A stretch of DNA of 64,000 nt from Phoronis australis (Eukaryota > Animalia > Phoronida). Shown piece by piece: positions 19,812-63,300 of this stretch; the first letter of the stretch is position 1; every line of letters starts with the position of its first letter. A model generated the notes under the pieces. That model made no database searches, was not told the DNA's origin, and saw only the letters and a list, made by a program, of their open reading frames with translations. The stretch covers positions 1-64,000 of the forward strand of contig NMRA01000344.1 in NCBI GenBank assembly GCA_002633005.1. The letters are read 5' to 3'. The position numbers were made by a program, and so were the translations under genes.

Positions 19812-19921
19812 TCAAATGGCGCTGATGGCAATGACCAGTAATAGAACAGCGGTATGGAGATGGTCACTAATTATTGACGAAGCTCCATCTTTAATCTCTT
19901 GGGTGTTGTCGTTGGGTGCAC
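19812..19921 (-). CDS. Candidate terminal exon encoding a GPI-anchor-like C-terminus
   Basis: TATTTTTAG acceptor, phase 1; (G)APNDNTQEIKDGASSIISDHLHTAVLLLVIAISAI-stop: small-residue cluster DGASS, spacer, hydrophobic tail ending at the stop; AATAAA on the minus strand at 19644-19639. Linkage to the TSP1 exon is inferred from phase only. Confidence 0.6.
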
Positions 19922-22900
19922 CTAAAAATAAACGTGCGGATTTATAAACTGTGTCCTTACAACGGCTCAACAAGTAGCCTTAATAAACACAGCTCCAGAC
20001 CGACAGCACATGCAAGTAAATTATTTGAAAGGAACTCCTCACTACAGAGCAGTCGAAATAATCAACCTGGGGAACTCGAGCGAGGCCACGTGACATCTTC
20101 AGCGAGCACTTCGAAATTTAATGTCAGTGTTATTGCCAATATCATTTTCCGGTAGCGACTTCATCGTTAAATTTGGAATCCGCTTCGTCAAACATCGCCG
20201 CCTCAATTGCAAGATTTTGGTAGATCCTAAATGATATGGTAAATCCGTCCCTGGCGCCGTTTCACAAGATCGCTATGTTTCTTATACACTCTGGTTTTAT
20301 TTGTATCATATGGAGCAAATAAAGCAAGACGGGATATCAACTCGAAGATTTTCGTCTGGCCTTCGACGCACCTTCGCCGTACTCTTTGATAGATTACTTT
20401 CTTTGAAATGCGTTCTACAGGTATTGAAGAATAAGGGATGAATACATAAATACAGTGGCGTGTACAGATGTACTAGGAAAACACAGGAGGTAGGTTTTAT
20501 CAAAGTTAGTCAGTCTGATAGGAGCCAAGACGTTCGGTTATGGTCCCTTGAGCAATGGTGCAAGAAAGGTTCCAGCAAACCCGATGCTCTTAGACTTACC
20601 ATCTTGCTGTGAACCTATCCAGGTCCCAGGTATTCAGCATACGCGTTAGGAGTAGAAACACCGCAGAAAAAGACCTAATTGGTATCTTTACATCATTTTT
20701 GGTTTTGTGTGTTTCATTTGACTCATATTACACAATCGCGCTGCGGTGTTCATGATATCTGAGATCCTAGAAAGGGAGACAGTCCACCTTCCGAAATCCC
20801 ATTGTACGGCCACTGGCGGACATTGTTGTTTCATGGACCGTAGCTGCCGTGTACGCAATAAACAAATATGGCAATATATGACGGCTCCCGTCAGTAGAAA
20901 AGCAATGGTGCTTTTTGCAATCCCTACGGCAGCAGCAACAGTTAATTGAAAATTCGTGACTTAGGCTTTTTTTTGCTTCCCCATTGATTCAAATAAGTCC
21001 ACGATTGAAACAGGATATTTCTGCGTGAAACTGTTGCCAGTCAGCCAGCGGTGGAGTGGGTGATTTGAACTTAATTTTTATTCTTGTTATATTATCATAT
21101 ATTTGTTTTTATGTATTCTTCAGTTTTATTTATTATTATTATTTATGTAGTTTTATTTATTTACTTATTCATTGTTTTTATTTATTCGCTGTTACTCATT
21201 TGAATTAGTTCTTGTGATCCCATGCAGTCAACATTCTGGCTGACGTTGGTCAATAATCTATATCATATGTTGATGGTATGGACTTCAGTGCATAATAAAT
21301 ATTAATTGTATTGTTTGGTAACCTGCTTGATAATTTGCAATAGGAACTGTCGAAGGAAGTGTTCTTTTAAAAGCATATCGAGCCTTACATCGGTGTGTAC
21401 TTCGGTAATATGTGTATTACCTTGGAAACCCAGTTACACTCAGTGACGATGTTTGTTTAGTCAAAAAATAAGGCGTCCTTGTGTTATTTATTTTGAAGTT
21501 GGCCTGCTGACGTAGGCTGAATATACCTTTAACTAACTGCTGACGGTTGATTTAAAAAAATGTGAATGATTTAGGAGAGCTGGAAAGCATCGTCAAAAAC
21601 TACACTAAATGGATTGTGTATCCAATAGGCATATTGGGTGTTTGATGGGTACATACAAGGAAGGTTTACTGGACTGCAGGCAGGATTTCCATCTCTTGCC
21701 TCCAGTTTTATTCACCACAACCCACCCCAACTCGCTACTCGTTTCAGGCACACACACCCGCTAGGTGTCGCCACGGTCCATGCCACAATAACGGCGGCGG
21801 CCAAAATGAATAGTCTTGTCAACGACCTTCATGAGAGGTCATCGATGGGGTGCGCGAGATGACTCATATGAAGTGTGAATTCGCTAAGACAAGGACGCTG
21901 CGACAAGGTCACTACAGATCGCAATTCGCCCTGGAGGCCGTGAACGTGACAGCACGGAATGAAATCGATTCTGTTCTAAATAATGGTAAAAATAGTTTCA
22001 TTGGAATATCCATTACTGGTGGAGGTACGTGATCCACTTAGTAATAATTATTTTACAATGAATTTAGGTGCAAAAAGTTGGGCAGCCAGAGAACCTTAAT
22101 AGGTACAGCGATTACGTAATTTTTTGTAACTTATCACACGAATTATTATACAAACATACGCACCACGGTCTGGTACAAGAAAATAGTCATCAGTCACAAT
22201 AAATGACCTTATAACGCCTATACACACTCTCCTTTTTATCTCTGGAAACGGAACTTGCGACGCACCTATTATTTTCGGGAAAAACTTCGAACATAAAATG
22301 TATTAATCTAACCTCTCCTTCCCATAATGCAGTTTTCATGTACTTTGGCCATCACCGGGAATTTTATTCATCTTACTGCTTTTTTGTTTCGAACGGTAGT
22401 GACTCTTGGTGCCGAATTAAGCCAACGGATGTTTCAGGATTCGGTAGTGCCATAGGCTATATCGTATACTAATGAAAACTTTAATACTAAAGTCGTGTAA
22501 ACTTTGTCAAACTATTTATTTGTTGTCCTTTTGCATATTTAGAAGAAAAAATATTTCGGAAAATAATATTATGGCAGTGATTGGATGCGTTTAAGTGCAG
22601 GAAGAAGAGCTGCTGTCACATTTCTGTTAATTTCAGTTGCTGTGAAACAAAGCGGTCCAAAGATGGCTTAAACCTACCCATAGATCGACCCTAGTACAAG
22701 TGAAACACTTGATTTCTTCTATAACTCAAGTCTAAACCATTATTGAAGTAGTGTGATTTTAATAAACGCGCTACGACTGAGACAAATACCCAGGCTTGTT
22801 GTTTAATATTCGCGTTAACTGTTCAAAATGTACTAGAGCCATCAGACATATGATTTGCCAGTGCAGATTCACTTTCAATCAAGAACAATATTAAAACGTA

Positions 22901-22972
22901 GTTCTAGCATTAAATGACCCATTGCCATCTTCAATCACCATCTGGTTTGGACAGTACAGACAGTGTTCACCC

Positions 22973-23781
22973 GGGATTTGTTCTAAAACCACCTCAAATC
23001 CACACCCAACGAGCCCCTCGAACCACTAACCCCACTACCCAACCACCACGACCCACAACCCCCGCGACCCACCACCTGCGGCAATAGAGGCATCGTTGCG
23101 CTTTTTTCAAATTCCATAACCTTGTTACGTCATTGAGAGACTTTCCCATAGCACTTACGCTGGCTCAAGACTGGTGGTTAAAACAGAAATTGGCATAGGA
23201 ACATGATCTGAAATAACGGATTGTGAGTGTGCTATTGTTGCCACGGAAACGGTTCCACAAGCGGCTGCCAATGACACTGCTTTAGTAAACTAAGGGAGGA
23301 AGTGTGGTATCACGTTTACACATAATTCCCCATCTTTAGTATTGCTTCCTGTCGTATACTCGTTTACAATATGCTACATGTAACTTCAAAATTAGTTAAC
23401 AGTTTGTTTGAAACTGTATTTACTGAAGAAATTATGATATTTGTGGTCTTATCGAACTCTCACAAAAGTAGCATGAATCTGCCATTCACTGAACAGCAGA
23501 CCTGACGATTACACTCTGGATTTAATCAGACGATTAGTAACGTTGGTATGTCTTTCAAATAATTTGGTAGTGTTTTTTTTCAGACTTGCCGAATCGATTT
23601 ACTCAATAGCAAAAAATGGGGAAAGTCAAGCAAGCACACGACCAGACTCGTTGTTCCTACAAGTCAGCGCTTTTACTATGTTCAGATCGAGGCGAGCATG
23701 TGTAAACTGGGTCGAGGGGGTTGTAGGTCGTGGGTCGAAGGCTTCGTAAGGTGTGGGGTTGAGGGAGTTTTAGAACTATCT
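22973..23781. mobile_element. Second, inverted and diverged copy of the 8591-9477 MITE family
   Basis: Shares CAAGTCAGCGCTTTT..ATGTTCAGATCGAG and GGCAATAGAGG segments in reverse orientation, with the same CGACCC/GGGTCG subterminal repeats. Confidence 0.75.
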
Positions 23782-24266
23782 CTCATACGGTTACCTTTCC
23801 CAGTATACATGGTAAACGCTTTCCACCATATCACCGAGGTACTCAACAATATCACCGAGGTACTCCTGATGTTTGCTAGAATGTCTATGGCTGAGCAATG
23901 GGTGGAATAGATTTGGGTTCCAGGTTCATGTTAGTTCCGTCAAAACAGGCGACACAGACGTTATATCGTCTCTTAAACATGCATGCAAAACGAAAACTAG
24001 TACGATGAGTCTTTAAGAATGAAATGAACCTACAAATTGGTGCCAAAGAAATTCAACATTTTTTAACTTGTAACAAAGGATCTATTCTATCGTCCACTTG
24101 TTCAAAGAGTGGCCACGGCCCACAAGGCTAATTGCTGTCCTAATTTGGTCCCTACACCACCGTATTACTTTCCTAAGGCACGCTCTTGCGAATGATTGTG
24201 TTTTAGAATGTTTGTTACACATGCGCACTCGCCCCACGAATCTTCCTCACGCTCACGCTCACTTAA

Positions 24267-25907
24267 AGGAGCATGCCACCCCAAAACAACCTAATTTGCA
24301 TCAATTTAGATCGAGTAGTTCTACTCCATAAGGACACGTACGGTTGCGTTACCTGACACCTGACGGCAGACGGAGGTGTTGAAATTATCCAATGACATCA
24401 TCGGTCTCACACGCAGTGTGTTCAGCAGTTCACAACATGGGTTACTGGTGTGAGCTTATCGCTTGAAGTAATCGTTTAACACCAATAAATCATCAAACTT
24501 CGTTGTAAAACCCTTAAAAATACACCGAGTTCTTATAAAAACGTGTTGTTTTATTTCGCTCAAAGTTTGGCAGGCTAATAAATTCTGTAGCAGGAGTTTG
24601 GGGTCTGTTTGGAGATAATTTCGAAGTATTTTCCGTGAGATACAGACAGAAGAACCTAGATCTGTGTTGTTTAGACTTGTGATTTTTTGAGTTCTAAACA
24701 CAAAACGCTTGTTATCCTGACCAGTAGCTCGGAGCCCGATCAGGCCCGTCGCTGACGGCCAGATTGACTCGTTATCCCGGCCAGTGGCTTGGAAACTGAT
24801 CAGACATCACGAACATAAACCAGCCAAAGTTCAGTGGAAAGTAAACTTCCAGTCAAGAAAATACTATAGTAGTGAGCCAAAGTAATGTGCACGTGATTAT
24901 GTTGGTGAATTAGCCACGAAACTGCAAATCTACTTACTCGTCGGGGGCCGCGAATTCAGGTTCCGCTTTGGCCACAGCACCGTCAGGGCAGAAGTTGTAT
25001 AATGTACATTGACAATCATTATTTGAGTAAAGTCAATGTAAATAAAGATTACCCTATCACCTGGCCGTGGGATGGAAATCGAGTTGTTTCACAACAGTTT
25101 CTGCCAGCATACACTAAATTAGTATGAGTTCACACGGCCTCGGTGTCCCGTCAATTAGGCCTAAAGCCGGTAACGCAGTGATTTATTCATTACTGGCTTC
25201 TCAAATCATTTGCACTCACGAACACTCCACAGGCATTACAAATTGCATCTTAAGAGACAGACTTTGTTTAAGTTTTATATAAGTATTGGTTAGGGTGAGA
25301 ATAATTCATTTTGAAACAGAACGCTCAGTAATAAACGCCAACATGGCAACTCGCAATCCCGACTTAGGACGAGCTAGAGCTCATCAGTCCCGACATCGCA
25401 GGTGGATCGTTAAGTTTTAAAGGCTATGAATTCGAACAAGAATACAATGATGAAGAAATACTAGAGAGGCGCCGTGAACAAGCTCAGACAACGGAACGTA
25501 TGGAGTTATTTGGTAAGCCGGCATTGGTCAGGCACTGTCGACATCGGCAGGCCACAGACCCGGAGATGTTTCACGGCCTCATACTTGCTATTTACAGCGT
25601 ACATTTCATTCTTCACTACCATGAGCCACTTCCTAAGCATCTCGGACTCTCGAGGAAGTAAAAAAGACGATATACCCGCTTTCCTCGCAGCTGCTTTCGT
25701 TGTTCGGACAAGCGGGAAAGATGCACCGCATCTGAGCGGCATTCACTCTGCATATGAACCACTGACGTCGCTAGCGTCGTTTCTCACCTTCCTCGCAGGT
25801 TAACGCGACACCTCTTGGCAAGGTAAGGTCGACCGTATACGAGGCGATGTGGATATAGACCGATTAAGACGACAAAAAAGACTAATTAAATCGGGTGGTA
25901 TTCTCCT
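24267..25907. mobile_element. Kolobok-like non-autonomous DNA transposon
   Basis: TTAA-AGGAGCATGCCACCC ... GGGTGGTATTCTCCT-TTAA; decayed interior includes GYEFEQEYNDEEIL (about 25420), resembling the PY.FEP acidic N-terminus of Kolobok second ORFs. Confidence 0.7.
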
Positions 25908-27493: not shown

Positions 27494-27779
27494 ACAGCTC
27501 CACAGCATTATTAATTTATAAATAAATCAATAACATAAATGAAATATTTAAGCTCGAAACTTCGCAAGGGCACAGCATCTCAGTGGCTGAAAATGTTCTC
27601 AATGTTCAGAGAGGCCGCAACTCATTGTCCAGTGAGCAAAAGCTCCTCACTGCAAGTCTCGCGAGTCATGCATCTCCGGAACGCAGCCCCGCTGGCTGAC
27701 TGATAATTGATGACCACCGTTTCAACACTTTATCGACTAGTGACCAAGACAAGTAACAATCGAGCAGGTCGCTGATGTT

Positions 27780-29390
27780 ATAAAAACGTAGTCCGGCGCC
27801 CGTCCGGCGTCCGGCGTCCGCTGCTCTATCGCCAAAACCGTTTGACGTATGTTCATGAAATTTTGCACACGAGTTTATTTTGTTGATGGGACGGCATGAG
27901 CGAACTTTCAGACGGATCCCATTACCGGTGGCCCCCTAGTGGCAATTTTAGTTTTTTTGCGTTTACATCTTAGTCTGTATCTTCAAAGGTCCTCAACGTA
28001 TTTTCATAAAACTTGGTGTATAGGCATCTATTAGTAAGACGACGGTATCCTCTTGTTTTTGGATGGATTCGACGTAGTTTGCGCCATATAGTGGCCTTTT
28101 TACTGTTTTCTAGTCTGTTTTTTTGACGTCCACCTCTCTATCAACCAAACAGCTCTAAGTATGATTGTGAAAAATTGGCATGTATGTTCTTACTATGAAG
28201 AAGACGGTTGACGATGATTTTCCGACGACTTCGACTACTGTGGCGCCTCCTAGTTGCAGTTTTGTTGTTTTGCGCCTATGGCTATATCTCCTAAACCGTC
28301 TGCAGCATCATTACTAAACTTAGTAAGTGCATTTATATGATGTTGACAATGGACGACGAATGACTTTCGGACAGATCGGACAACTGCTGTGTCACCTAGT
28401 GGCAATTTTATTTTTTTACGTTTACCTCCGTATCTTCAAAGTCCTTAACGTAATTTCATAAAATTTGGCGTACAGCCTTCTAGTGGCCATTTTTACTGTT
28501 TTCGAGTCGTCTGTTTTTTGGCGTCCACCCCTCTATCAACCAAACCGATTTCAGGATAATTGTGATGACTACTATGGCGCCTCCTAGAGGCTGTTTCTTT
28601 TTTGCGCCCATGGCTGTATCAACTAAACCGTATGCAGGATCTTTACCAAATTTAAGTGTTTTTATATGATGTTGACAACGGACGACGATGATTTTGGGAT
28701 GCATCCGATTATTCGTATGCCCCCTGTTGGCAATTTTGGTTTTACGTTTACCTCTGTATCTTTAAAGGTCCTCAACAGATCTTCATAAAATTTTGAAGAC
28801 CGGCATCTATTGGTGAGATGACGCTATCCTCCCGCTTTTGGATGAAAACAAGGTACTTTGCACCACCCAGTGGCCATTTTTGCTCTTTTCGAGTCTGTTT
28901 TTGGCGTCTACCTCTCTTTAAACCAAATCATTCTAAGGATGGTTTTGAAAATTGGCGTATATGTTCTCAGTGTGAAGAGGACAGTTGATGATGACGACTC
29001 TGGCGCTTCCTAGTGGTAGTTTTGTTTTGTTTTGAGCCCATAGCTGACTCTCCTACACCCACTGCAGTATCTTTATTACATTTTTTAAGTTTATTTATTT
29101 GAAGCTAAATGCAGACAATGACGACTTTCAGGCGGATCCAATGAACACTGTGCCCTAGTGGCAATTTCATTTTATTCTGTTTTTCTTTGTTTCTCTGAAG
29201 TTCCATGACCGATTTCTATGATATTTAGTGTTTAGCTTCCTATTAGAGAAGCAATGACATGTTCCCGTTTTCGGACGGATTGCTTTTTTGCACCATCTAG
29301 TGGCCATTTTTATGACACAAATAAGTAACGCTAACACACCATTTGCGATGCATTCGTGGGCGCATTTCAACGCTCCGCGTTGCACTTGTT
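27780..29390 (+). repeat. Helentron/HINE-like repeat, family A, copy 2
   Basis: CGTCCGG microsatellite, 0.3-0.45 kb internal tandem units, 3' GTGGGCGCAT subterminal repeat, hairpin CAACGCTCCGCGTTG and CTTGTT end. Confidence 0.75.
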
Positions 29391-29512
29391 ACCAAAGAAA
29401 TCGCTGCTACCTTGAGTGAGGTGTTCATCGCCTACATCAGTTTATCAATGTTGTGACCTCGAGAAGATTGCCGTAAGATAATTGCAGTTCTGCTATGTAA
29501 GTGCTAGTTTAC

Positions 29513-29677
29513 CTGGACATGGAGGTTCGGCGCATTCCCTTATCTTGATATTGAGACCAGGGCACCTAGCTTCACCGAACAGTGGGTTCAGGCACGATCT
29601 CACTCGGATTTGGAAGCCGGGCCCGCAAGAGGAGGAGCATTCGGACCAACTGCCGTACTCAGTCCACGTGCCATCAT
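29513..29677 (-). CDS. Thrombospondin type-1 repeat exon, probably of the same ADAM-like gene
   Basis: ATTTCAG acceptor, GTAAAC donor; 165 nt, phase 1-1, compatible with the preceding exon; DGTWTEYGSWSECSSSCGPGFQIRVRSCLNPLFGEARCPGLNIKIRECAEPPCP is a complete TSP1 motif. Confidence 0.88.
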
Positions 29678-33593: not shown

Positions 33594-33597
33594 TTAA

Positions 33598-35494: not shown

Positions 35495-36463
35495 TGCCCG
35501 CAGCTCCATTGACAGTACTAAACGATGAATGCTGCAAGTGCAAAAAGAACATGTGTGCTGGGAAACTGAGTTTGTGCTGCAATTCTGGGTCAAACTGTAC
35601 AGAAATGTGCAGCTGTGACAACTGTAGTAACATCAGCAACACTGACTGCATAACATTGGATAGTTCTTTGACCAGACTATCCCAAATAGACCTCCAACCC
35701 CGTTATTTCGTTTTTTTTGTATTAAAAAGTGAATTTTATTTGTTGATTAAGTCATAGAAAGTACGTACTTTGGTCATTGTCATGTATTTGTCTCATACTG
35801 CTTGATAAATGCTGTCAGAATAATCTATTATTTTAACAGTCCGTGTGCACATTCACTGAGATCATTCAACTATATTGCTTTTGTACTATAACGTATTTCT
35901 GGTGTATTGTGCAAACAAGCTATATTACTGCAGGTGCCATCACTACCGACTGGATCAACCTGGAAAGAGGTATCGTAANTGCCCGCAGCTCCATTGACAG
36001 TACTAAACGATGAATGCTGCAAGTGCAAAAAGAACATGTGTGCTGGGAAACTGAGTTTGTGCTGCAATTCTGGGTCAAACTGTACAGAAATGTGCAGCTG
36101 TGACAACTGTAGTAACATCAGCAACACTGACTGCATAACATTGGATAGTTCTTTGACCAGACTATCCCAAATAGACCTCCAACCCCGTTATTTCGTTTTT
36201 TTTGTATTAAAAAGTGAATTTTATTTGTTGATTAAGTCATAGAAAGTACGTACTTTGGTCATTGTCATGTATTTGTCTCATACTGCTTGATAAATGCGGT
36301 CAGAATAATCTATTATTTTAACAGTCCGTGTGCACATTCACTGAGATCATTCAACTATATTGCTTTTGTACTATAACGTATTTCTGGTGTATTGTGCAAA
36401 CAAGCTATATTACTGCAGGTGCCATCACTACCGACTGGATCAACCTGGAAAGAGGTATAGTAA
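35495..36463. repeat. Near-identical 485-bp direct duplication around a single N (likely assembly artefact)
   Basis: 35495-35978 repeats at 35980-36463 with about 2 mismatches seen; junction is an N at 35979. Confidence 0.85.
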
Positions 36464-38345
36464 CTGGATGTACCATCTCTCCTACTCTGTTCATCATGGG
36501 GATGAATTTTCTGATAAAGGCCGGAGAAAGGGAATGTAGGGGTCCGATGCTACAATCCGGTATCGTGGTGCCTGTAGTTGAAGCAATTATGGATGACTTG
36601 ACAATAACTACAGTGACGCATGTGCAAGCTCGTTGGGCTTTGGCAGCACTAGATGAAGTTCCAACGTGGGCTCGTATGAAGTTTAAACCCAGGAAGTCGA
36701 GACTTCTGATAATGAGAGGTGGGAAAATGGTCGACAGATTTACCTTGACCATTCAAGGCGAAGAAATTCCATCAATTGTTAACAACCCCATCAAGTGCCT
36801 AGGTAAATGGTACGATGATCTCCTGTGCGACAAGAACAACATCAAGCAGATGGAGACTCAGGTGACGGAGTGGTTGAAGAGAATAGTGAAAAGCGGTCTT
36901 CCTGGCAAGTACAAGGCATGGATTTACCAGCACGGGCTGTTACCTCGAGCAACGTGGGGTCTTATGCTGTATGACTTCCCGATATCGGCAGTAGAGTGCC
37001 TGGAGAGAACAGTAAGCAAGTGGCTGAGGAAGTGGTTGGGTGTCCCAAGAAGCTTCACACAGGTTGGTCTTTATAGCAGAACAGCAGAGCTGCCTCTAGT
37101 GCCAATCACGGAGGAGTTTAAAGTAGGGAAGTGCAGGCTGGTTCTCACATTATGGGACTCTAGAGATCCAAAGGTGAGGGATGCTGGTGTCATGACGAGA
37201 TCAGGGAGACGGTGGTCAGCAGACACACCTGTGAGTCAGGTGGAGGGTTTGTTACAGGTCAGAGATATAATTGGTAGCACCTGCGTAGGACGCCAGGGGT
37301 TGTGGACATCCCAGTTCCAACAGTGGGAGAAGGCGAGTGAGAGGCAGCGGAGGGGGATGGTACAAGCTGAGGTGAGAGCTGCAGAGGAGGAAGTCCGTAA
37401 AGCCAAGGCAGTCCAACTAAGCTAGCAGGGAGCATGGACCAGGTGGAATCTTCCAGAGAGGAAGATATCATGGGCAGACGTGTGGAGTATGGAGCCAATG
37501 CGTGTCCAGTTTTTACTTCGCTCGGTTTACGACGTGTTACCATCGCCTGCAAACCTTCTTCGCTGGGGCCTAGTGGATGACCCAGCCTGCCAGTTGTGCG
37601 GAGGAAGAGGTACATTGGCCCACATCTTATCAGGGTGCAAAATGGCACTGCAGCAGGACCGATACAGATTGCATCATGACCAAGTACTGAAGACCCTTGC
37701 AGACATCATAGATGGAGAGCGTAAGATAAGAGTAACTCAGCCTAGGGCAAGCAGACAGCACATACAATTCGTCAGGGAAGGTGAGATACGGAACAAAGTC
37801 ACGTCAGCAGCCTTGCATCCTGGATGGATTAAGCTGGGAAAAGAGAGTACATCTGGGAAGAAAGCTTATGTTCCCGAGTGTTGTGGTAACATCACTGCGG
37901 CCTGACATCATTCTGTGGTCGGATATTCATCAATGTATAGTGATTATAGAGCTTACGGTGCCTTGGGAGGAAGGATGCGAAGAGGCCCATGAGAGGAAGT
38001 TATCTAAGTATAGCGAGCTGGCGGAGACATGCAGAGCTCGAGGCTGGCAAACTTGGTTGTTTCCTGTAGAGGTGGGATGTAGAGAATTCCCTGCAAGATC
38101 TGCACGGTATTTGCTGGAGAAGCTTGGTGTGCGAGGGGGAAGGAAGAAAGCTGCAGTGAGAAGACTGGGCGAGACAGCTGAAAGGACATCTTGTTGGCTG
38201 TGGTACCGCCGGAATGAAGGAAGTTGGAGGCCTCAGTGATGCACAGTGGGTTGGCCGCCGCTGTTTATCCACCAGTGGAGACCGTTATGGTCGAAACGAG
38301 TCAAGGAAGCTGGATTCCATCTGACGACATCAAGCTACGCCTCCA
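36400..38345 (+). mobile_element. 5'-truncated non-LTR retrotransposon with RT, zinc knuckle and restriction-like endonuclease (Hero-clade-like), inactivated
   Basis: RT motifs RGIVTGCTISPTLF and IMDD; CQLCGGRGTLAHILSGC knuckle; HDQVL; LRPDIILWS...IELTVPWEE...AHERKLSKY...PVEVGCR; stop at 37423-37425 and a frameshift near 37800. Confidence 0.88.
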
Positions 38346-39067: not shown

Positions 39068-41340
39068 TGGCTTTACGGATTTTTGTTAAATGCACGACAC
39101 TTTTCATTGTTCAGTCTTTATTCCGTTACGTTCGTACTTTCGGAACAAAACTCTACTCTCGACTGAACATAGATACAGTANATATTTCGAAACATACTTG
39201 TTTCATTCTCAAGTGAAGATAAAATGACGCAATAATGCCACTACAGAGTAAAAACTGACGACACACACAGTGAGACACGGCGGGTGTGAAATACTGCAAA
39301 GAATGACTAATGAACGGGGGTAACAGGAAAGTCACGCAAACAAGTGTAACGTGCGGCGCGACCCCGTTTGCTGCTCATTCAAAACAGGCTTCTCAAAAGC
39401 AATTAAAAGGGACTCTAATACTTTCAAACACAGCACATCTTGCTCCACGTAGCGAATTGACGTGTTTTCCACAGTTTCTCGACGGGTGATTTTACCTGTG
39501 TGACATTGCAGAAAATGATCCTGGGTGGTGCCATTTTGAAGATGCATGGATAACGGACGGGAAAGACTGCAAACCGTGTGACCAATGTAACATTGTTTGA
39601 CGTTTGAACGAAGACATTTGTTCTTAGGGCATAAACAACACTACACTGTGCAACGGGGCGGACTTTCGCCTTAGAAATGTTATTTTTCATGACCAAGTTG
39701 GAGTACTTCCTATTCCGATAATAAATAATAACATCGAAGTAATCACCAGGCTTACAAACTTTAACATTTTCCCTTGTAATTTTCTTCATGGCGTGTTCGT
39801 CCTGGAGGTAATTATTAAACATGACATTTTTGTAAAATATCTTTTTGGTGACACCGGTCCGACGTGCATGGACTTCATAGCTAATTCTGGACACAAATCG
39901 CTTAATATGGAAATCCACAAAAGCATTGGTTAACCCATTATTCACCAGAGTTTGTCCAATGCGATCTACCTCTTGATTGAACAGCAAAAAGTTGGACGAC
40001 ACCGAATACGTCCTCTTTAGGAAGTTGACCACAACGGCGAACCTTATACCGCTCAGGGCACTCACTTTTGTTGAGACAGAAGCCTTTATCAGTAGGCTTG
40101 TTGTAAACTGATGTAGAAAATTCAGATGGAGAATGGTTCACAAGAACGTCCAAAAACGGAATCTTGTCATTTACAGGAAGCTCGTGGGTAAACTTCAAAA
40201 TAGAGTGGCGCTCAAGTCCATCAGGTACTGATAACAAGTCATCAAAGGCACAATAAACAAAATATCATCAACATAACGTACATGGATAGGAGTACCACCA
40301 ATCACATTGTTAGCCCTTTTTTTTCACTTCAGACATATAAAATTCCGAGAAAGTGGGACCCAGAGGAGAGCCCATGCTCACACCATCTTTTTGCAAAAAC
40401 AATTTGCCATTTATATGGCGAAATGGTACTTTGGTTGTGCAGATGGTCAATAACTCTCTCATATGAGTTGGTGAAATGTCGGGTGGCTTTAAATGTGCGT
40501 GACGTTATACACTATCCAAAATGATAGTAATGGTCTCATCCACCGGTACGTTGGTGAACAAAGACTTAGCGTCAAGCGACATAGGTTGGTAATGGAGGGT
40601 AACTGAAAACTTGCTCTCGAAGTACAGCCAGTTCAAGTTACACGACCGGGCAACTATTATCGGAATAGGAAGTCCCCCTACTTGGTCATGAAAAATAACA
40701 TTTCTAAGGCGAAAGTCCGCCCCGTTGCACAGTGTAGTGTTGTTTATGCCCTAAGAACGAATGTCTTCGTTCAAACGTCAAACAATGTTACATTGGTCAC
40801 ACGGTTTGCAGTCTTTCCCGTCGGTTATCTATGCATCTTCAAAATGGAGCCATCCAAGATCATTTTCTGCAATGTCACGCACGTAAAATCATCGTCAAGA
40901 AATTATGGAAAACACGTCAATTCGCTACGTGGAGCAAGATGTGCTGCGTTTGAAAGTATTAGAGTCCTTTTTAATTGCTTTTGAGAAGCCTGTTTTGAAT
41001 GAGCAGCAAACAGGGTCGCGCCGCACGTTACACTTCTTTGCGTGACTTTCCTGTTACCCCCCTTCATTAGTCATTCTTTGCAGTATTTCACACTCGCCGT
41101 GTCTCATTGTGTGTATCATCAGCTTATACTCCATGGTGGCATTACTGCGTCATTTTATCTTCACTTGAGAACGAAACAAGTATGTTTCGAAATGTCGTGT
41201 GTCTTGTAATTATGTCGCTAGGTCAGATACTGTATCTATGTTCAGTTGAGAGCAGAGTTTGTTCCGAAAGTACGAACGTAACGGAATAAAGACTTTAAGC
41301 AATGAAAAGCGTCGTGCATTTAACAAATTCTGTATAACCG
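39068..41340 (-). mobile_element. Penelope-like element, 5'-truncated, with inverted terminal (pLTR) copy
   Basis: Minus-strand RT relics SLDAKSLFTNVPVDETI, RYVDDIF, LKFTHE...IPFLDVLV, TSVYNKPT, then VVY of a decayed GIY-YIG; about 39070-39725 is the reverse complement of about 40655-41340. Confidence 0.88.
41161..41200 (+). ncRNA. Minimal hammerhead-ribozyme-like motif in the Penelope pLTR
   Basis: CAC-TTGAGAA-C-GAAACA(AGTA)TGTTTC-GAAA-TGTC-GTG: stem I CAC/GTG, variant core, stem II hairpin, GAAA, GUC site; second copy on the minus strand at about 39182-39216. Confidence 0.5.
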
Positions 41341-41633: not shown

Positions 41634-41745
41634 ATGGCGCCTTGGTTGATTGACCTCCGCCAACAATCCCGCCAGACACAGTTGTCTCACAACGGGGCGG
41701 TGCATACCCGTTATCACAGTGACAACTCCCTTTGTTATCGCATAC
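41634..41745 (-). CDS. ADAM-like gene exon: EGF-like domain and linker
   Basis: TTCCAG acceptor, GTGAGT donor; 112 nt, phase 0-1; VCDNKGSCHCDNGYAPPRCETTVSGGIVGGGQSTKAP (ADAM-type GHGVCnN...CHC..GwaPP.C). Confidence 0.93.
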
Positions 41746-43078: not shown

Positions 43079-43147
43079 CCCATGTCCGTTGCAATTGCAT
43101 GGATTAGCAATTGAGGCAATGGAAAGACATCTACGGTTGACGCACAT
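43079..43147 (-). CDS. ADAM-like gene exon: end of cysteine-rich domain 2 and start of EGF-like domain
   Basis: TTTTGCAAG acceptor, GTAATT donor; 69 nt, phase 0-0; MCVNRRCLSIASIANPCNCNGHG. Confidence 0.9.
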
Positions 43148-45637: not shown

Positions 45638-45812
45638 CTTTCCATGGCCACAGCTTTTGCCGTTGGGAGCCATTGCATTGTCATCCAACTCCTCGTCGTT
45701 CGCCCACACAGAGTAACATCCGTCAGATATCGACTTATTGTAACCATTCTTAAACATGCCGTCCAGATTGGCGAACATATACGTACAGTGAAGACGGCCA
45801 CATTGAACGTCA
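45638..45812 (-). CDS. ADAM-like gene exon: cysteine-rich domain 2, part b
   Basis: TTCCTTCAG acceptor, GTAGTT donor; 175 nt, phase 2-0; DVQCGRLHC...MAPNGKSCGHGK. Confidence 0.92.
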
Positions 45813-48038: not shown

Positions 48039-48202
48039 TCGCTATGGCAAGGAAGGAACGAACGACTGCTGAAATTGTACCCACAATTCCCTCTAATATC
48101 GCCGTGCATGTTGAGGTTGGAGCACTCGACGTTTGCACTAGACCCGCCATATATTAAACACCAATCGACCATTCCATCGCACGAACCGTTGAAGCAGTGG
48201 GC
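48039..48202 (-). CDS. ADAM-like gene exon: cysteine-rich domain 2, part a
   Basis: TAG acceptor, GTAAGT donor; 164 nt, phase 0-2; AHCFNGSCDGMVDWCLIYGGSSANVECSNLNMHGDIRGNCGYNFSSRSFLPCHS. Not in the ORF track. Confidence 0.9.
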
Positions 48203-48399
48203 CTACCATGGATAATTGTTCGTGATTATTTGCAAACTATTTCGATCATACATATGTAGACAGTTTTCGAAATAACCCGTATTCAAGGAAACCAGCCTTT
48301 CAGAAAATGTTATGAGCTTTCAGTTACACTAACATAGACACATAAACATTATTTCCCTTAGTCTTCTAAATCTACTTGAGAGTTGGTGTTCAAAATTTA

Positions 48400-52752: not shown

Positions 52753-52887
52753 CTCGCCCTCTATGCAAACAGAGCCGTCCTGTTTGTGCAAGTCTTCAGG
52801 GCATGATGGCGATGAACCGCTGCAGTATTCAGGGAGGTCGCAATTATCGGAACTAGCTTTTCTACACAAAGTGCCCTGTTCTTCAAG
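52753..52887 (-). CDS. ADAM-like gene exon: C-terminal half of disintegrin domain 2
   Basis: TTTGTCAG acceptor, GTAAGC donor; 135 nt, phase 0-0; LEEQGTLCRKASSDNCDLPEYCSGSSPSCPEDLHKQDGSVCIEGE. Confidence 0.95.
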
Positions 52888-55019
52888 CTGACAAATGAAA
52901 GCAATGTGTGTTATCTCAGGAAAGAAAAGCTTGTTGCTGGTTAAATGCACGTGAGCAGCACAAAGACCTCACGGTGACTTTTTATAGATAGCAAAGTCGA
53001 GCCGTGGCTTCCAATTTATGGGCTTGAGGTATACGATTCCTGCACACTATTATCCAGGAAGAGTTCCGCAGCCAAACGTAACGGCTTTTGGTATACGAGT
53101 CCATGATCCAGAAAATCACGCAATTGATCGTATGCACTGTAAGCCCAACCTGGCAGTTGATTTCGAAAACTACTAGGCCAACCTGCATGCTCATTGAAAT
53201 ATCGCACAGGCAAATTCAATTGAGAAACACGCAGATTTGCCAAAAATAATTGGGTTGACACGTTGTTGAAATTTCGATGTGTTGCTAGGCAGGTAGTTTC
53301 GCGATCAAGGTCAACAGTCATGTAAGGAGGCAGGCTAGCATGCTCAAATAACTTAAATGATCTTTCCTAAAAATGTAGGGTCCTTCCCAAGCTTCAGCAC
53401 ATCCTGTTGCCATGGTAATCAAGGGTCTTCGCAATTACAGTAATGTAGTATGGTGTACCTGTCACACCACAACGAACATCTAAGGAGCACAATGGTCATA
53501 ACAAACATATCATCTAGGATGATTTTTGAAAATCCAAAATGGTTTTCAAAGCAACTCCCGCACGCATAGTTGGGAATAGGCATATTAAAACAACATAAAA
53601 ACTACGCACATCAAATGCAGTAGCTTTAACTAAAATCTGGGGAGGGGAATAATGCATCAGCATATCCCCAATGATCCTGTCCGTGACAGGTATTACAGGT
53701 ATTACTAAAATCAAATACTGGTATGTCAAATCTGTAGCATTTCTTAACAAGAGCAACGCAGAGCATTGAAATGCCCCACGAATTCACCGCAAACGGTGTG
53801 CTTCTAGGGTTGTTTATTTGTTTCATAAAAATAACCACTAGATGTCGCAAAAACACCCAATCCACCTGACAATTGGAAATGCCATCGCTTCTTTAATAGA
53901 AAGCTATTTATCAAATTTCATAAAAATCTCTCAAGGAGCTTCAGAGAAACAAAGGTAAAAAGAAAAAAATGAAATTGCCACTATTGGGCACAGCGTTCAT
54001 TGGATCGGCCTCCATATAAATGCAATCACTAAATTTAATGAAGATCATGCAGTGTGTTAAGGAGGCAAAATTAAGAATCTTGACCAAGCACATTGACCTA
54101 CATTTTGCTGCTGACGTCACACGGATCACGGATGGAATAAAATTAGTCATGAACCACAGAAAGTGTCCCTGATGAGTGGCAAATTTGTGTGGAAAAGATA
54201 TCCTTGTGTCCGACGTAAAATCAACTCTTTGTTCAAAACCCATTTTGTAATAATTATTTAAAACACATGAGAATTAATTAAGATGAAAGTGTTCAGAAAA
54301 ACTACGTTGTTGTGCTTGCTCGGCCTCAGTAAATGCGGGTATATTCAAATCGAGATTAAACAGGCTGTCAACTCTTTCGGTGAGAAGTTCGTGACTAGGC
54401 ATAAGTCTGATATAACATGCCGGTACCATCAATAGCACCCCGCCCTGTTGCAAGTTCTCATAGGCTCTGTCTCAAGTACTAGCATTTTGGGCTTTTTCAA
54501 ATTGTCACCTGTGTGATTAGGTGATTTGAACTTTAAAGAGAAATTTTCAATCACTAGGGGAATTTTAAGACCTCGTTGGGGGAATTTCGCGTGATTTTTA
54601 AAATATTTTTGAGAGCGGAATAGGCACGATATTCAGCCCCAAAATCAAGGGATTTAGGACCCTGTCCTTTTTGGAAAGAAAAATGCATCATATTTCAACC
54701 CGTAGTCATGAAAACACAGCCTGGCATGCCGAAGATTCACCGGTCGTTGCTATGATGCTCGGCAACCGAGATATGCGACAAAATATGATCTAACTTTTCG
54801 AAAACATTAATAAATTTTATACGGACATATTTTCCTTCGTTGCAGCATATGGCAACGTCCCAACGCTTCCGAATCTCAACGTCTTTAGGGATTGTAAAAC
54901 AGACAGTTGAATGTCCGTGTTCTAGCCGTTAGAGCAACGCGGAATACAACTATGCCGATAAGCCAACAGAACTATGGTAGCGAGCCTCGTTTTGGAACGC
55001 GCCTCCTGTCGGCGTGAAT

Positions 55020-56224
55020 TGGGTCATCTCACCAATAGATGCCTATATTCCAAATTTTCTGAAAATCTGTTGAGGACCTTTGAAGATACAGAGGTAAACC
55101 TGAAAACCTGAAACTGCCACTAGGGGTTAGTCAGATCCGTCCGAAAGTTGCTGTCATCCGTTGTGAACATAATGTAAATACACTTGCTATATTTAGCAAA
55201 GATCCTGCAAACGGTTTAGGAGATACGGCCATGGGCGCAAAAAAACAAAATTTCCACTAGGAAGCACCACAGTAGTCGAAGTCGTCGGAAATTCATCATC
55301 AGCTTTGTAGTAAGAATATACATGCCAATTTTCACAATCATCCTTAGAGCCGTTTGCTTGAAAGAGGGGTGGACGCCAAGAAGTAGACTAAGAACAGTAA
55401 AAATGGCCACTAGGTGGCGCAAATGACGTCCAATCCATCGGAAACCGGATGATAGCGTCATCTCACTATTAGATGCCAATACGCCAAATTTTATGACAAT
55501 ACGTTGAGGACCTTTGAAGATACAGAGGTAAGAGTAAAAATAAAATTGCCACTTGGGGGCACACCGGTTGTCAGATGCGTCCGAAAGTTGTCGTCATCCA
55601 TGGTCAACATCATATAAATACACGTGCTAAATTTAGTAAAGATCCTGTCAACGGTTTGGGAGATACAACCATGGGCGAAAAAAATAAACTCCCACTAGGA
55701 GGCGCCACAGTAAACCAAATCGCCGGAAAATCATCGTGAGCCGTCCTCTTCGTAGTAAAAACATGCATGCCAATTTTCACAATCATCTTTAGATCGCTTT
55801 GGTTGATAGAGGTGTGGAAGTCAAAAAACAAAATCGAAAACAGTAAAAATGGCCACAAGGGGGCTCAAACTTCGTTGAATCCATCCCAAAACGAAATGAT
55901 AGGTCACCTCATTAATAGATGCCTATATGCTAAATTTTATGAAAATACGTTGAGGTCCTTTGAAGATATAGAGGTAAGAGTAAAAAACTAAAATTGTCAC
56001 TAGGGAGCACACCGGCAGTCGGATCAGTCCGAAAGTTCGCTCATGCCGTCTCATTTATGAAAGAAAAGTAAGTGCCAAATTTCATGAACGTATGTTAAAG
56101 GGTTTTGGAGATAGAGCAGCCGATGCCGGACTGAAAGACGCGGACGGACGCCGCACGGACGGACGGACGGACGGACGGAGATGACGGCATAATGCGTCCA
56201 CATGAAAAACATGTGGGAGCATAA
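55020..56224 (-). repeat. Helentron/HINE-like repeat, family A, copy 3 (reverse orientation)
   Basis: 5' hairpin ATGCTCCCACATG...CATGTGGACGCAT on the minus strand, (CGTC)n, about 440-bp internal units (GAGGACCTTTGAAGATACAGAGGTAA near 55072, 55507, 55952). Confidence 0.8.
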
Positions 56225-57019: not shown

Positions 57020-57181
57020 CTGACACGTGTTAAGATCGCAACACTTCCCATGCCCACACTGCACTCCTTCCGCCTTGGTGCACGTCGAAGGATTACAACA
57101 TTTGCTGGTGCATTCCCACGGGTGGCCGCAGTCACAAACTTCCCCGGCGTCCAGTTTTCCATTACCGCACGTTGGAGGAAT
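57020..57181 (-). CDS. ADAM-like gene exon: N-terminal half of disintegrin domain 2
   Basis: CCCCATAG acceptor, GTGGCT donor; 162 nt, phase 0-0; IPPTCGNGKLDAGEVCDCGHPWECTSKCCNPSTCTKAEGVQCGHGKCCDLNTCQ (CGNG....GE.CDCG disintegrin start). Confidence 0.93.
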
Positions 57182-57325
57182 CTATGGGGGAAAATCTATG
57201 AATTCAGTCACGTAAGTTTGACGTCTATCATATAACGCTTGAGTTACAGGGGCACGTTCAGATCGTGAAAAGTTGTTTCCAACAAGTTCAGTGAAATATT
57301 TAGTGTAACTAAATTTTCAACTCAC

Positions 57326-57397
57326 CCCGTCTCCAACGCCTTGGTATCCGGAAACAGTCGCCGTTGTTGTTGGTACACAGCGGTGATTTATGCAAAT
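57326..57397 (-). CDS. ADAM-like gene exon: end of cysteine-rich domain 1 plus Thr/Gly linker
   Basis: TAG acceptor, GTGAG donor; 72 nt, phase 0-0; ICINHRCVPTTTATVSGYQGVGDG, paralogous to the 69-nt exon at 43079-43147. Confidence 0.85.
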
Positions 57398-57460
57398 CTA
57401 ATAAGAAAGGTACTACATAAGGTGTTTTGGCATCGCAGAAATGGAGTCAAGTGAATTTAA

Positions 57461-58557: not shown

Positions 58558-59304
58558 TTAAGGTGTGAGTGAGATTATCGACGAATATTGCAGAGACATC
58601 CATCACCAATAAGCAGAAAATACAGGCTCAAGGTAGGTCTGCAAGTTTTCAATGGGGTTTTCATTGACGATGGAATACGGAAAAGCTTTTGACGGGAATG
58701 CAGTTTTGATTATTTAAATCACACAATGCAAACGCGTGTGTCACAGGTATGTTAACCAAAGTAGTAATTAAATTTGTCCATGTTGGTGGCAATTTTAATA
58801 AAAGTGTCAGTCTAAATTCAAACAATCGGCAATAGCCAGTTTGATCAATAACACTTTTGAACATAGGCGATATATAGACCTAAGCACAACGACATTCACG
58901 TGTCGGAGGCTCGTCTATATTCAATACCGCAGGTAATTATTCAATTAAATTTTTACATAATGGCCATGACATATATAAAAACCGGCTGGGCAGCAAAGGT
59001 AACTTCCTCATCAATGAACATAACAGCAGTGTGGAGACACATAGAGAAATATTAATAGGCTTCTTACTGGGATTTAATTACAAACTATTATTTGACTAGC
59101 AAACTGTAACACTTCGTCTAAAAATGTTCACATGTGGGTTATCTCGGCCAAGAACACCTTTACAGGATACTTCCTACATAGTGCATACAAAATGTAAACT
59201 TGACAGGGTTCCAAACAACATGGACAGTGTGTATTGTACCACATCATACAATTGAATTTTTGTTGGTTCAGAAAACAAGAACGCTCTGGACAAAGAAAGC
59301 CTAC

Positions 59305-59488
59305 CTTTCCACTTGAGCAAACACTTCCGTCAGGAACCATAAAAATGTCTCGAGCTCCTCCTGGAATGTGAAGCGCTTTGCACTGATGACTTGTGTAGTC
59401 GAACTGTATAGTCCCAGCTCCATTCAATGAAGACAAAGGGTCGAACGATCCCTCGTTAGTGCAAAAGAGCAGTCCACACATTCTGTCC
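59305..59488 (-). CDS. ADAM-like gene exon: cysteine-rich domain 1, part b
   Basis: TTTTTAG acceptor, GTAGGC donor; 184 nt, phase 2-0; DRMCGLLFC...MVPDGSVCSSGK (ADAM D..CG.L.C ... V.DG..CG.GK). Confidence 0.92.
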
Positions 59489-60439
59489 CTAAAAATCACA
59501 TTGTGCATAGCAGATGAGTGGCATTGTTACGATGAGTTCCCTTTGCTTGTATTTGATTTTTTTAGTCAACTAATCGCTGCCTGAGCCTGAATTTATGTAG
59601 CATACGCGTATGCCGGTTTAAACAAACACGTGTTCATTTCCTAATCTTGAAAGAACTCGTCACTTGCACTGTATACCATCTCTCTGTCACTGAGGATGAT
59701 TGCAGTTCGTCACTCCAGCTATTTTCTGTCCACTGCAGATCACACGATGATTATAGCCAACTCTTGTCGATTCTAACAATCGGCGAAGGCTAATACGAAC
59801 AGCAATTTCGCTAAGTAGCATTCAATTCACAGTTGTTCACAAAGAACCGCCACATAAACAAAAATGGCGGAATTAATAAATTCGAACAATTGTCTAAGAT
59901 AACCAAAACATTGCGTTTCAGCTAAAAACAACCCTGATAACGACTGCTTGTGCCTTTTAGGGATCGCAGTTGAAAATCATATGATGCACCAGTGGTACAA
60001 GAGGTATGCAAAATTAACAGTGAATGATGGTGAGTAGTATGCGCGTATTCTCTTGTTTAGTTTGACGTCACTTTGGCGTTCGAGGCCTGGTCAAATAAAA
60101 TTAAAATGTCGAAATTAAAAAGTAATAATTATTCCAGATTTAAGAAGTGCTGTAATTGCAATTATTAAGCACATACAAAAATTTCTACGTGGCCATGGAC
60201 CTGATCAATCGTAATCATTCCCAATACACCGATTAATCCAAACACACAATGTTGCAAAAAATCAGTGCTAACATGTCACTGTTCTTTCTGAATCTGAAGA
60301 AGCCTAGTACAGCAACATTTTTGAAATGTGACTTCATTGCTGTTCTTATTTGGGGGTCTAAACTGCGTCATATCAGTGGCAGATACGTCATTTCTTAACA
60401 TCCCAATAACAATACTTCCAATATTATCAAGTGCCTTAC

Positions 60440-60609
60440 ACGTGTTCACATTTGTAGTACTTCCCGTTGTTGTCGACTCCACAATTGCCTCGAATGGATC
60501 CTTCCCTGTTCATTCGGTAACACGGTCGTTGGGCAGCTCTGGCTGACGGTCCAAACAGCTCACGACACCGCTGTGTGTGGCTCACACACTTGTTTTTGTA
60601 GCAGTACGA
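60440..60609 (-). CDS. ADAM-like gene exon: ADAM cysteine-rich domain 1, part a
   Basis: TTACAG acceptor, GTAAGG donor; 170 nt, phase 0-2; SYCYKNKCVSHTQRCRELFGPSARAAQRPCYRMNREGSIRGNCG (ADAM_CR pattern YCY.G.C....QC..LFG ... GNCG). Confidence 0.92.
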
Positions 60610-61292
60610 CTGTAAGGCAGCAATTTTACACAAAATGCACTACACTGTGACCATTTGTCAGGTGTCAACAATAACCTTCTCATCCAGCTCTCAAACTCCA
60701 GCAACCCAAATAAATCACCGAAAGTTTGGGATAAAATTTGAAAACTCTTTTGAAAAGTCTACTAAATGAGCGACGTGAACTAACGCTTTAGGCGATTTAC
60801 ATTACCACTTCTGGGAGAGTTCACTCACCAGCAACCATAAAATCAAATCTGTTTGCATAAAATTAATGGAATTCTAATTTGACACCGTGCAATTTGACAA
60901 TTTAATACATATCAGTCGATTTCATATAGGTGGTTTAACTTTAAACCTGGTTTAAATTGGGCTTAAATCAGGTTTCAAGATAATCTGCATTTCATAAAGG
61001 TGGTTTAACTTTTGGATCAGTGGTCTAGCAAAACCTGGTTTAACTCCAGTTTAGACCTGGCGTAAGTCGGTTTGCATTTCACCAACGAGGTCTATATTCC
61101 TTAGACCTGTATTAACATCTTAAACCAGGTTTAAATTTATGCTTGGTCAGACTCAGGTTTGATATTGTTAAAAATGGCAGACATTCACGATATAGGCGCA
61201 ACTGAGTGATGCCGTGGTGTGCATTTACGTTTTAGGGCGAAAGCGGCTTATTTCCAATATTCAGTTTTAGGACAACACAATATCAAACGTAA

Positions 61293-61435
61293 CAGGGGCA
61301 GATCCAGGATTTTTAAAAAGTTTGGGTCGGATCAAATATTCTTAAAATGGGGTCAGAAAATTATAGATTTGATATCACTAAAATCAAGATAAAAATGGGG
61401 TCCGGACCACATGACCCGCCCTGGATCCGCCTATG
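61293..61435. mobile_element. 143-bp MITE inside the Harbinger relic
   Basis: CAGGGGCAGATCCAGG ... CCTGGATCCGCCTATG; flanks CGTAA / CGTAG. Confidence 0.7.
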
Positions 61436-62231
61436 CGTAGACCAGGGGTGTTGCAGGATATCCTTCGGATTTCTCAGAATATGACTGGTAGAGCAGAGCG
61501 TCATCGTCGCAAGCGCGGTTTGACTGAAGACGGCATCTTCTGATTCGCATGAGCGAGTTCCACCTCAATTGGTACACAATTTAATGTTGCCGGGCTGGCT
61601 TCCTGTCCCCCTTTATCCGCAAAAAATAAATGACACGAAATAAAGTTGTGCAGCTAATCCTGAGCAAGTACTTTAATGGTGTAGGTGCGTTTGGACATAG
61701 ACATTACAAAATGAAACATGTCCCCTCATATCCTAGATCTGCCACTGGGTCACTCACCGTTTTTCTTTGCATTTTTTCACAGATGAAATTTTCTTTCAGG
61801 CCTTCATTTTTTAACATTTATTGCAATAATGATAACACAATACAAAGACAGAAATCCTCAACGACACATCATACACGCACGCACTCATTTCACAGAAAAC
61901 TCAATTTCACAAACCAAAAACACCAAATATACTTTCTTTTTAAAGAGCAAAAACCAGGCCATCTTTGGAAAAATATGTCTCCTAATCCATTTTTACAATA
62001 ATTATATTTTTCGAATGTGAATTAAATTTCTATGTTCTTTTTTGAAAAGCCTTAGATATGGAGGTTCTACCTTCAGCTTTCTACAGTATATATTCTTTTT
62101 GGTCAAAAGAACGGTAAGATTAAAAAGTTCACTCGCGTTTCCATTTTACCACTGGCTTTCATTTTTAATGATACCCTTTAACTGCTTGTTGCTGCATTTT
62201 CCCGATTTTGGGAATTGTGCAGCCAGTCTGG

Positions 62232-62372
62232 AGCAATATCTCTCCAAGCCGGCTGCTTACGTTGACTTGATTTGGCACCAGTTTTCTTGTTCTCTATAAC
62301 ATTGGCTTTTTCTCTGATCAGTTATGGGAGGGAACATTTTTCCTCGTGAGAAAAGCTTTTAGGCCTTTTTCG
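62232..62372 (-). pseudogene. Myb/SANT-like DNA-binding protein relic (Harbinger second ORF)
   Basis: RKRPKSFSHEEKCSLP*LIREKANVIENKKTGAKSSQRKQPAWRDIA fits the RKR..nF+.EE...L......+IEnKKT......K..AW.+Ia pattern; internal stop. Confidence 0.75.
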
Positions 62373-63162
62373 CTAATGTCTGCACTGATTTTATTGCTGT
62401 GTGCCATTGTGCACCCACTTGATCAAGGTTTCATTGAAGCACTTCAATAGTTTCTGTATTGGGTTAATCCGAATTGTTACAGTAGGCTTGCATACTATAA
62501 ACATGATTTAATAAACCAGTTCCCTGATCTAACAAAATCAGGCTTTCAGACTTTTCAACCACATTGGTGAAATTCACTTTAGGTCTAAAATTAGACCAGA
62601 TTTAGGAAGACCAGGTTTAAGTCTTTAACCTGGTTTTGTTAAACTACCTCTATAAAATCGGCTGATATGTGTCTAAGTTCTAAGAGAGTTGGACGAATTC
62701 ACGTGTTTGAACTCTGGTGGGTTTGCAGTGCTAGGATTATGGAATATGAGAACACTACTACAATTTCCTTAAGAAAATACGCCTAGCCCCAAACGATTGC
62801 TTTTTCTGTCGCAGCTGTAGCCACTATCTTTTGTACACCTTTTCTCTTACATGTGGTCATATCCATGGATAGTCAGTAGATGTAACTACTCAAGCCACTA
62901 TGTTAAGTCTTTTCTCAACCAATATGTTTTACACTTTTCTTGGTCTGTCGACAAAGAATCCGTGTTTATTTATTGTTAAAGAAACCCAATCAACTGATTA
63001 CTTAGAAATAGACGTGTTGTTACAACTGGCCCTAAAATACAGGTAAAAATTTATCAAATGATCGGTGATATATTTTGGGCATTTTCTTAAACCAAACCGT
63101 TATTCTAAAAGGTATGCATTGGTATTCTTAACTATAAAGTACTAACTATAGGTTATACTTAC

Positions 63163-63300
63163 CATTTCTGAACCAACACGGCAAACAGCTCTATCAGGCT
63201 TACGCATGTCACTGGGACAATTTTTGGAATTCCCTCTGCAGTATTCGACACGATCGCATGAGTCGGTCTTGTCCCTACACACTTCCGTCGATGGTTTGAA
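63163..63300 (-). CDS. ADAM-like gene, first exon visible in window: C-terminal half of disintegrin domain 1
   Basis: AG acceptor at 63302-63301, GTAAGT donor at 63162; 138 nt, phase 0-0; reads FKPSTEVCRDKTDSCDRVEYCRGNSKNCPSDMRKPDRAVCRVGSEM, matching the disintegrin CR...CD..EYC.G.S..CP.D pattern. Not in the ORF track. Confidence 0.9.

Follow-up and report, generated by a model that had tools for sequence, protein, structure and literature searches.

Can an ADAM, a protein type whose domain layout is treated as fixed, carry two disintegrin/cysteine-rich arms together with a thrombospondin type 1 (TSP1) repeat, the feature that sets ADAMTS proteins apart? This question is raised by a gene on the minus strand of a 64,000-nucleotide stretch of the phoronid Phoronis australis (contig NMRA01000344.1, assembly GCA_002633005.1, positions 1 to 64000; the whole stretch is called the window). 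The domain order of its product is disintegrin and Cys-rich, again disintegrin and Cys-rich, EGF, one TSP1 repeat and a hydrophobic end of 13 residues, and it is as good as certain that this layout lies on one spliced gene. The architecture, a rearrangement of known domains within the ADAM family, is real and expressed.

RNA support for a single spliced gene

The window is eukaryotic DNA with about 40 % G+C, in which the exons are short and lie among repeats. Motif and splice-site scans with refined borders gave 12 minus-strand exons with AG acceptors and GT donors. The joined coding sequence comprises 1656 nucleotides without internal stops and encodes 551 amino acids, 57 of them cysteines, followed by a stop codon.

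Three raw-read runs (X1, X2 and X3) and one contig set (X4), all with the same species label, were used as RNA sources, and about one fifth of each run was read. All 11 junctions are supported in both X1 and X2, nine of them by reads spanning the joint (72–171 per run) and two by loose read ends. The joint of exons 4 and 5, linking the first module to the second, was found in 92 and 72 reads of the two runs. The corresponding numbers are 160 and 77 for exons 2–3, 118 and 93 for exons 3–4, 89 and 78 for exons 5–6, 109 and 94 for exons 6–7, 137 and 80 for exons 7–8, 171 and 160 for exons 8–9, 133 and 146 for exons 9–10 and 102 and 124 for exons 11–12. At the joints of exons 2 to 10 all reads of X1 and X2 come from the strand expected of a minus-strand gene. 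Exon 10 is joined to exon 11 by loose ends in 124 and 131 reads (agreement 1.0), the consensus of which is the exact start of exon 11; likewise, the consensus of loose ends at the start of exon 2 (131 and 111 reads) is the exact end of exon 1. In addition, reads accumulate and end near 19658, next to a polyadenylation hexamer; depth falls to about zero below 19535, and one contig of X4 covers the last exon. X3 is almost silent with one read at one joint, so that expression depends on the sample.

A sequence-only reading of the window had predicted 12 GT-AG exons joining without stops into about 551 amino acids, with EGF, TSP1 and a hydrophobic C-terminus on the same gene. This is borne out by exon-wise Pfam matches, hydropathy and the RNA joints: the modules and the TSP1 exon are spliced together and do not belong to separate genes. 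The predicted order of two disintegrin/Cys-rich modules was recovered with Pfam as well, but disintegrin 1 is present in the window only as its C-terminal half.

Exons and domain architecture

Pfam was run exon by exon, and several half-domain scores lie below its cut-off for whole proteins. Exon 1 (63163..63300, phase 0-0) encodes the C-terminal half of disintegrin 1 (Disintegrin, E 1.7e-7). Cys-rich domain 1 follows on exon 2 (60440..60609, phase 0-2; first part, ADAM_CR E 7e-14), exon 3 (59305..59488, phase 2-0; second part, weak ADAM_CR E 0.11, aligning with exon 8) and exon 4 (57326..57397, phase 0-0), which holds the end of the domain and a linker and has no Pfam match alone. The second module starts with the N-terminal half of disintegrin 2 on exon 5 (57020..57181, phase 0-0; Disintegrin E 3.3e-7) and its C-terminal half on exon 6 (52753..52887, phase 0-0; Disintegrin E 1.3e-8), which is free of RGD. 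Cys-rich domain 2 is encoded by exon 7 (48039..48202, phase 0-2; first part, ADAM_CR E 4e-5), exon 8 (45638..45812, phase 2-0; second part with a fast-changing loop) and exon 9 (43079..43147, phase 0-0), which combines the end of the domain with EGF cysteines 1–2. Exons 8 and 9 have no Pfam match alone, and both align to the corresponding parts of the amphioxus ADAM12-like protein P0001. The remaining EGF-like domain and a Gly-rich linker lie on exon 10 (41634..41745, phase 0-1; EGF_Teneurin/EGF_2 weak, E 0.01). A single complete TSP1 repeat occupies exon 11 (29513..29677, phase 1-1; TSP_1 E 1.3e-11), and exon shuffling usually involves symmetric exons of phase 1-1. The coding part of exon 12 (19812..19921, phase 1), which has no Pfam match, comprises a polar spacer, the hydrophobic end and the stop. 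It is followed by a short 3' untranslated region (UTR; 19640..19811), where the hexamer scan placed the polyadenylation signal at about 19644. One weak candidate for an extra phase 1-1 exon in each of introns 10 and 11 was rejected as unsupported by the reads shown.

Over 171 amino acids the modules share 31 % identity (E 1e-20), and with copies this different the doubling is not an assembly echo. The exon pairs 1/6, 2/7, 3/8 and 4/9 share their phases and align pairwise, and each Cys-rich part retains 12 cysteines. In exon 4, a copy of exon 9, both EGF cysteines are missing. No EGF follows module 1. Both disintegrin loops lack RGD and fit CRxxxxxCDxxExC, loop 2 with one extra residue; this pattern is given as the ADAM disintegrin-loop consensus in a section of PMC3153164. 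The EGF-like domain behind Cys-rich domain 2 (exons 9–10) has six cysteines and a weak Pfam match. Six cysteines are also found in the TSP1 repeat, which shows the CxxSCG pattern and no WxxW; O-fucosylation sites of the CxxSCG type in TSP1 repeats are described in an excerpt of PMC4448532.

The linker between the modules shows a variant of its own. At position 57362 in exon 4 a 3-base insertion occurs in 103 of 135 reads of X1 and 70 of 96 reads of X2, and the length of the linker therefore varies in frame.

Comparison with known families

The gene belongs to the ADAM12/meltrin type and not to the ADAMTS proteins. With ADAM12/meltrin-type ADAMs (MEROPS M12B; amphioxus P0001 and P0054, sea cucumber P0063) it shares the order of a true disintegrin (PF00200), ADAM_CR and EGF as well as the conserved cysteine pattern and, with P0001, an EGF that begins with a short Cys-x-Cys. 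The ADAM Cys-rich domain (PF08516) follows a disintegrin twice. Unlike these relatives, the phoronid protein has two diverged modules, a TSP1 repeat, neither transmembrane helix nor cytoplasmic tail, and a probable glycosylphosphatidylinositol (GPI) signal. All ADAM genes share one domain structure according to passages of a review (PMC1867822); here, in place of one disintegrin, one Cys-rich domain and no TSP1, two modules and one TSP1 lie on one spliced path.

ADAMTS/ADAMTSL proteins resemble it in combining adamalysin-type modules with TSP1 and in the absence of a cytoplasmic tail. However, in ADAMTS proteins a central thrombospondin repeat (TSR) precedes a 10-Cys domain, which is followed by 103–160 amino acids of Cys-free spacer, and an EGF is lacking, as far as the available part of PMC4448532 goes. 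In the phoronid protein TSP1 follows the EGF, only 36 residues and the stop come after it, a spacer is absent and the disintegrins are of the ADAM type. ADAMTS membership was rejected, as a TSR with a 10-Cys domain and spacer behind it is missing and an EGF is present on exons 9–10. The TSP1 repeat itself scores 45 bits with Pfam TSP_1 and 28 with TSP1_ADAMTS and, judged by these scores, is a generic single-exon repeat and not of an ADAMTS-derived type. The sequence-only reading had spoken of an ADAM/TSP1 chimaera, which holds for a TSP1 repeat on an ADAM and fails in the sense of an ADAM-ADAMTS hybrid. It had also called the layout unusual, in agreement with the survey of relatives below.

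The membrane and tail part is likewise lost in ADAMDEC1, in snake venom P-III metalloproteinases and in the relative P0071, which unlike the phoronid protein have one module and no TSP1. Snake venom P-III metalloproteinases are secreted. ADAMDEC1 is soluble according to part of PMC4550289. P0071, a protein of 309 amino acids from a long ENA contig, has no parts other than disintegrin, Cys-rich and EGF, ends in a hydrophobic run and is perhaps another tail-less ADAM form.

Search for relatives

An exhaustive search with exon 2 yielded 137 representatives at E values up to 0.001; TSP1 is absent from all of them, and a TSP1 scan of all 183 collected proteins matched only the positive control. The relatives scanned with Pfam (n = 9) and the named ones are ADAM-type. 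Among 81 collected proteins of at least 300 amino acids, extra modules were flagged in six and TSP1 in none. Four of these six are best read as single modules split by insertions. The other two, a bat model (P0002; doubled modules 96 % identical) and a priapulid model (P0013; copies 99 % identical with the membrane helix repeated too), are likely errors of the gene model or assembly. The sample is small relative to all ADAMs, contains many fragments and has no close orthologues among the matches; annotated genomes of closely related animals may contain the layout.

Module 2 and the EGF are 37–43 % identical to ADAM12-like proteins (37 % over 308 amino acids to P0001), and exon 5 is 60 % identical to an amphioxus ADAM12-like protein. 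In word-index searches, which are nearly blind with single exons, 0 of 2 candidates held for exon 3, 1 of 2 for exon 5 (amphioxus ADAM12-like) and 1 of 1 for exon 11 (a mussel SCO-spondin-like protein). The ESM Atlas gave leads below 0.9 only, with no combination of ADAM and TSP1 families among the clusters listed. A quick-method tree of 79 collected proteins and both modules showed the latter as long branches without supported placement. In the literature searched (few subscription papers, no supplements), PMC12549020 included, no description of an ADAM with two arms and TSP1 was found, and a phrase search with the same coverage of subscription papers gave no match for doubled disintegrin domains; the layout is apparently undescribed.

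Sequence variation

The RNA reads differ from the window by fixed differences, about 6 % in the 3' UTR (at least 9 in 154 nucleotides) and 7–11 % at synonymous sites, and the reads thus derive from a diverged population or a (cryptic) sister species or form. The following counts are taken among the differences listed, which cover exons 7, 8, 10 and 12 and the 3' UTR. In Cys-rich domain 2 (exons 7–8) at least 16 of 113 codons are changed when six further differences read from a loose end are counted in, and no cysteine is touched; exon 8 alone has at least 10 amino-acid differences in 58 codons. The ratio of nonsynonymous to synonymous change (pN/pS) of this domain is 0.66 (0.72 with the table rows alone), above the expectation for an omega of 0.2 (P 0.004) and not above 1. 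Five changes fall within eight codons (357–364), in what we take to be the hypervariable region of the Cys-rich hand in ADAMs. This region is named as a likely binding site in a section of PMC3153164. Exon 12 is fast-changing overall (pN/pS 0.75). A test for positive selection gave pN/pS values of 0.52–1.03 by exon and data set and did not demonstrate it, and the fast change of Cys-rich domain 2 is a lead only.

Genomic neighbourhood

Prodomain exons found at 8101-8050, 6389-6311 and 1876-1794, in frame and with canonical splice sites, belong to a second ADAM gene that lies just downstream in the same orientation. The encoded prodomain is 43 % identical over 70 amino acids to P0001 (E 3e-17), and the gene with two arms consequently sits in a tandem ADAM cluster. 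Vertebrate ADAMs often occur in tandem clusters, and the testicular ADAMs of amniotes (ADAM2, 3, 20, 21, 24) combine tandem clustering with restricted expression, according to part of PMC4550289. Both traits are seen here too; unlike the phoronid protein, the testicular ADAMs keep the single-module transmembrane layout.

A tandem array with a 54-nucleotide unit (60–80 % alike) lies between the two ADAM genes at 17346-18209. Members of a dispersed repeat family occupy 27800-29400 (intron 11) and 53880-56130 (intron 5) in opposite orientations; X1, X2 and X3 all cover them deeply with RNA reads, which probably derive from copies elsewhere. Intron 10 contains the remnant of a non-LTR (long terminal repeat) retroelement in several frames at 36322-38239 on the plus strand (RVT_1 E 8e-6). 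Long inverted copies at 39184-39723 and 40655-41193, 94–95 % complementary and about 0.9–1.4 kb apart, have broken reading frames and no clear Pfam match and are probably a transposon remnant. A direct repeat of at least 300 nucleotides with 100 % identity (35495-35794 and 35980-36279) flanks an N at 35979 and is possibly an assembly overlap.

Origin of the doubled arm

As the proposed origin, a phase-0 block of five exons (one each for the N and C halves of the disintegrin and three for the Cys-rich part) would have been doubled within the tandem ADAM cluster. The matching phases and the half-EGF of exon 4 would be explained by a doubling of this block without exon 10, which holds the rest of the EGF. 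The orphaned half-EGF of the first copy would then have degenerated into a linker, a TSP1 exon of phase 1-1 would have been inserted, and an exon with a GPI signal would have taken the place of the membrane and tail exons.

A fusion, in which a deletion joined two diverged paralogues of the tandem cluster and which would leave the working of the protein unchanged, is a respectable competitor of lower probability. The cluster itself would supply the partners, no intron is shorter than the one separating the modules (144 nucleotides), and the modules are only 31 % alike, compared with 35 % and 40 % to some foreign ADAMs. Their separation in the quick tree points the same way; however, both are unplaced long branches there, and fast change after an internal duplication would give a like picture.

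The upstream part of the protein

The gene runs on upstream past 64000, so that the N-terminal half of disintegrin 1 lies outside the window; no further exon was found in the stretch 63301-64000. Using tblastn with P0001, no metalloprotease exon was found in the window, and the prodomain exons are those of the next gene. A prodomain and a metalloprotease domain are, on balance, expected upstream of the window. With the protease domain, the protein would be a lipid-anchored protease of the cell surface that has its exosite doubled.

Somewhat unlikely is a non-catalytic receptor for adhesion or recognition, the N-terminus of which would be a dead metalloprotease or a signal peptide with more disintegrin/Cys-rich repeats. 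A doubled, fast-changing binding arm would suit such a role, but an intact zinc motif is found in most full-length relatives and the ADAM prodomain of the neighbouring gene is normal, both of which bear on this gene indirectly.

The C-terminal end

Exon 11 is spliced to exon 12 and the stop comes right after the hydrophobic run, so that a transmembrane helix with cytoplasmic tail is absent from the transcript read. In GPI signals, small residues at the omega site are followed by a polar spacer and then by a hydrophobic run up to the terminus. This arrangement is found at residues 527–551, with small residues at 527–531, the spacer, 13 hydrophobic residues, the stop right after 551 and no tail. 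The terminal 13-mer has a mean hydropathy of 2.86, the highest of any 13-mer in the protein. The hydrophobic end is thus probably a GPI lipid anchor signal as predicted from this pattern. Among the RNA differences, D527S falls on the candidate anchor site.

That the end would instead belong to a protein secreted into the matrix, as ADAMTS or ADAMDEC1, or would form a minimal tail anchor, is improbable. Such a protein would fit the shortness of the run (the best 19-residue window averages 1.83), the fast change of exon 12 and the presence of TSP1, which is typical of secreted matrix proteins. Against it stand the three elements in GPI order, the rarity of comparably hydrophobic ends (3 of 1252 open frames of the window) and the conservative nature of both listed changes inside the run (L542I, L544V).

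An artefact, be it an assembly duplication or a set of exons from separate genes joined by chance, has precedents in P0002 and P0013; it is refuted here by the RNA reads at every junction and by copies that are only 31 % identical.

Proposed working of the protein

Taken as a whole, the gene would encode a GPI-anchored surface protein of the ADAM12/meltrin type with two arms for binding partners or substrates, which the EGF and the TSP1 hold out, and no control by a tail, a reading to which we give a probability of roughly 60 %. It would work in the manner of an ADAM ectodomain. The doubled arm would lengthen the C-shaped ADAM scaffold and offer two hypervariable loops, and the two arms would probably be the hands with which partner or substrate proteins are recognised. 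TSP1 might act as a stalk or bind the matrix. With the tail gone, control from inside the cell would be lost, and release by anchor cleavage would be possible.

Several points weigh against this picture. Short reads establish the junctions one by one and not in a single full-length molecule; the 128 and 389 weaker joints beyond those listed leave room for a minor isoform with a membrane tail. The N-terminus lies beyond 64000, outside the window. The tree places neither module. The GPI anchor is predicted from a sequence pattern and general omega-site rules. The pN/pS values lie below 1, so that relaxed constraint explains the fast change as well as selection does, and the sole internal control, exon 10, has a pN/pS of 0.17 on three changes.

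A possible role in gamete or immune recognition is supported only indirectly, by the sample-restricted expression and the fast change. It is rather doubtful that the protein is the first GPI-anchored and catalytically active ADAM, which with two hypervariable arms on a TSP1 stalk would serve self/non-self or gamete recognition in a fast-evolving, lineage-specific cluster.

Significance for the ADAM family

The weight of the finding is limited to one lineage and known parts: it is a lineage-specific rearrangement of known domains with a function that is only inferred. Within these bounds the gene, backed by RNA reads, demonstrates that an ADAM can double its disintegrin/Cys-rich arm and keep both copies over long periods. 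Furthermore, TSP1 can join a true ADAM alone, and the tail can probably be traded for a lipid anchor. Whether the arm serves for spacing or recognition, and whether an ADAM can work without inside-out control, are questions for which the gene is a natural test case.

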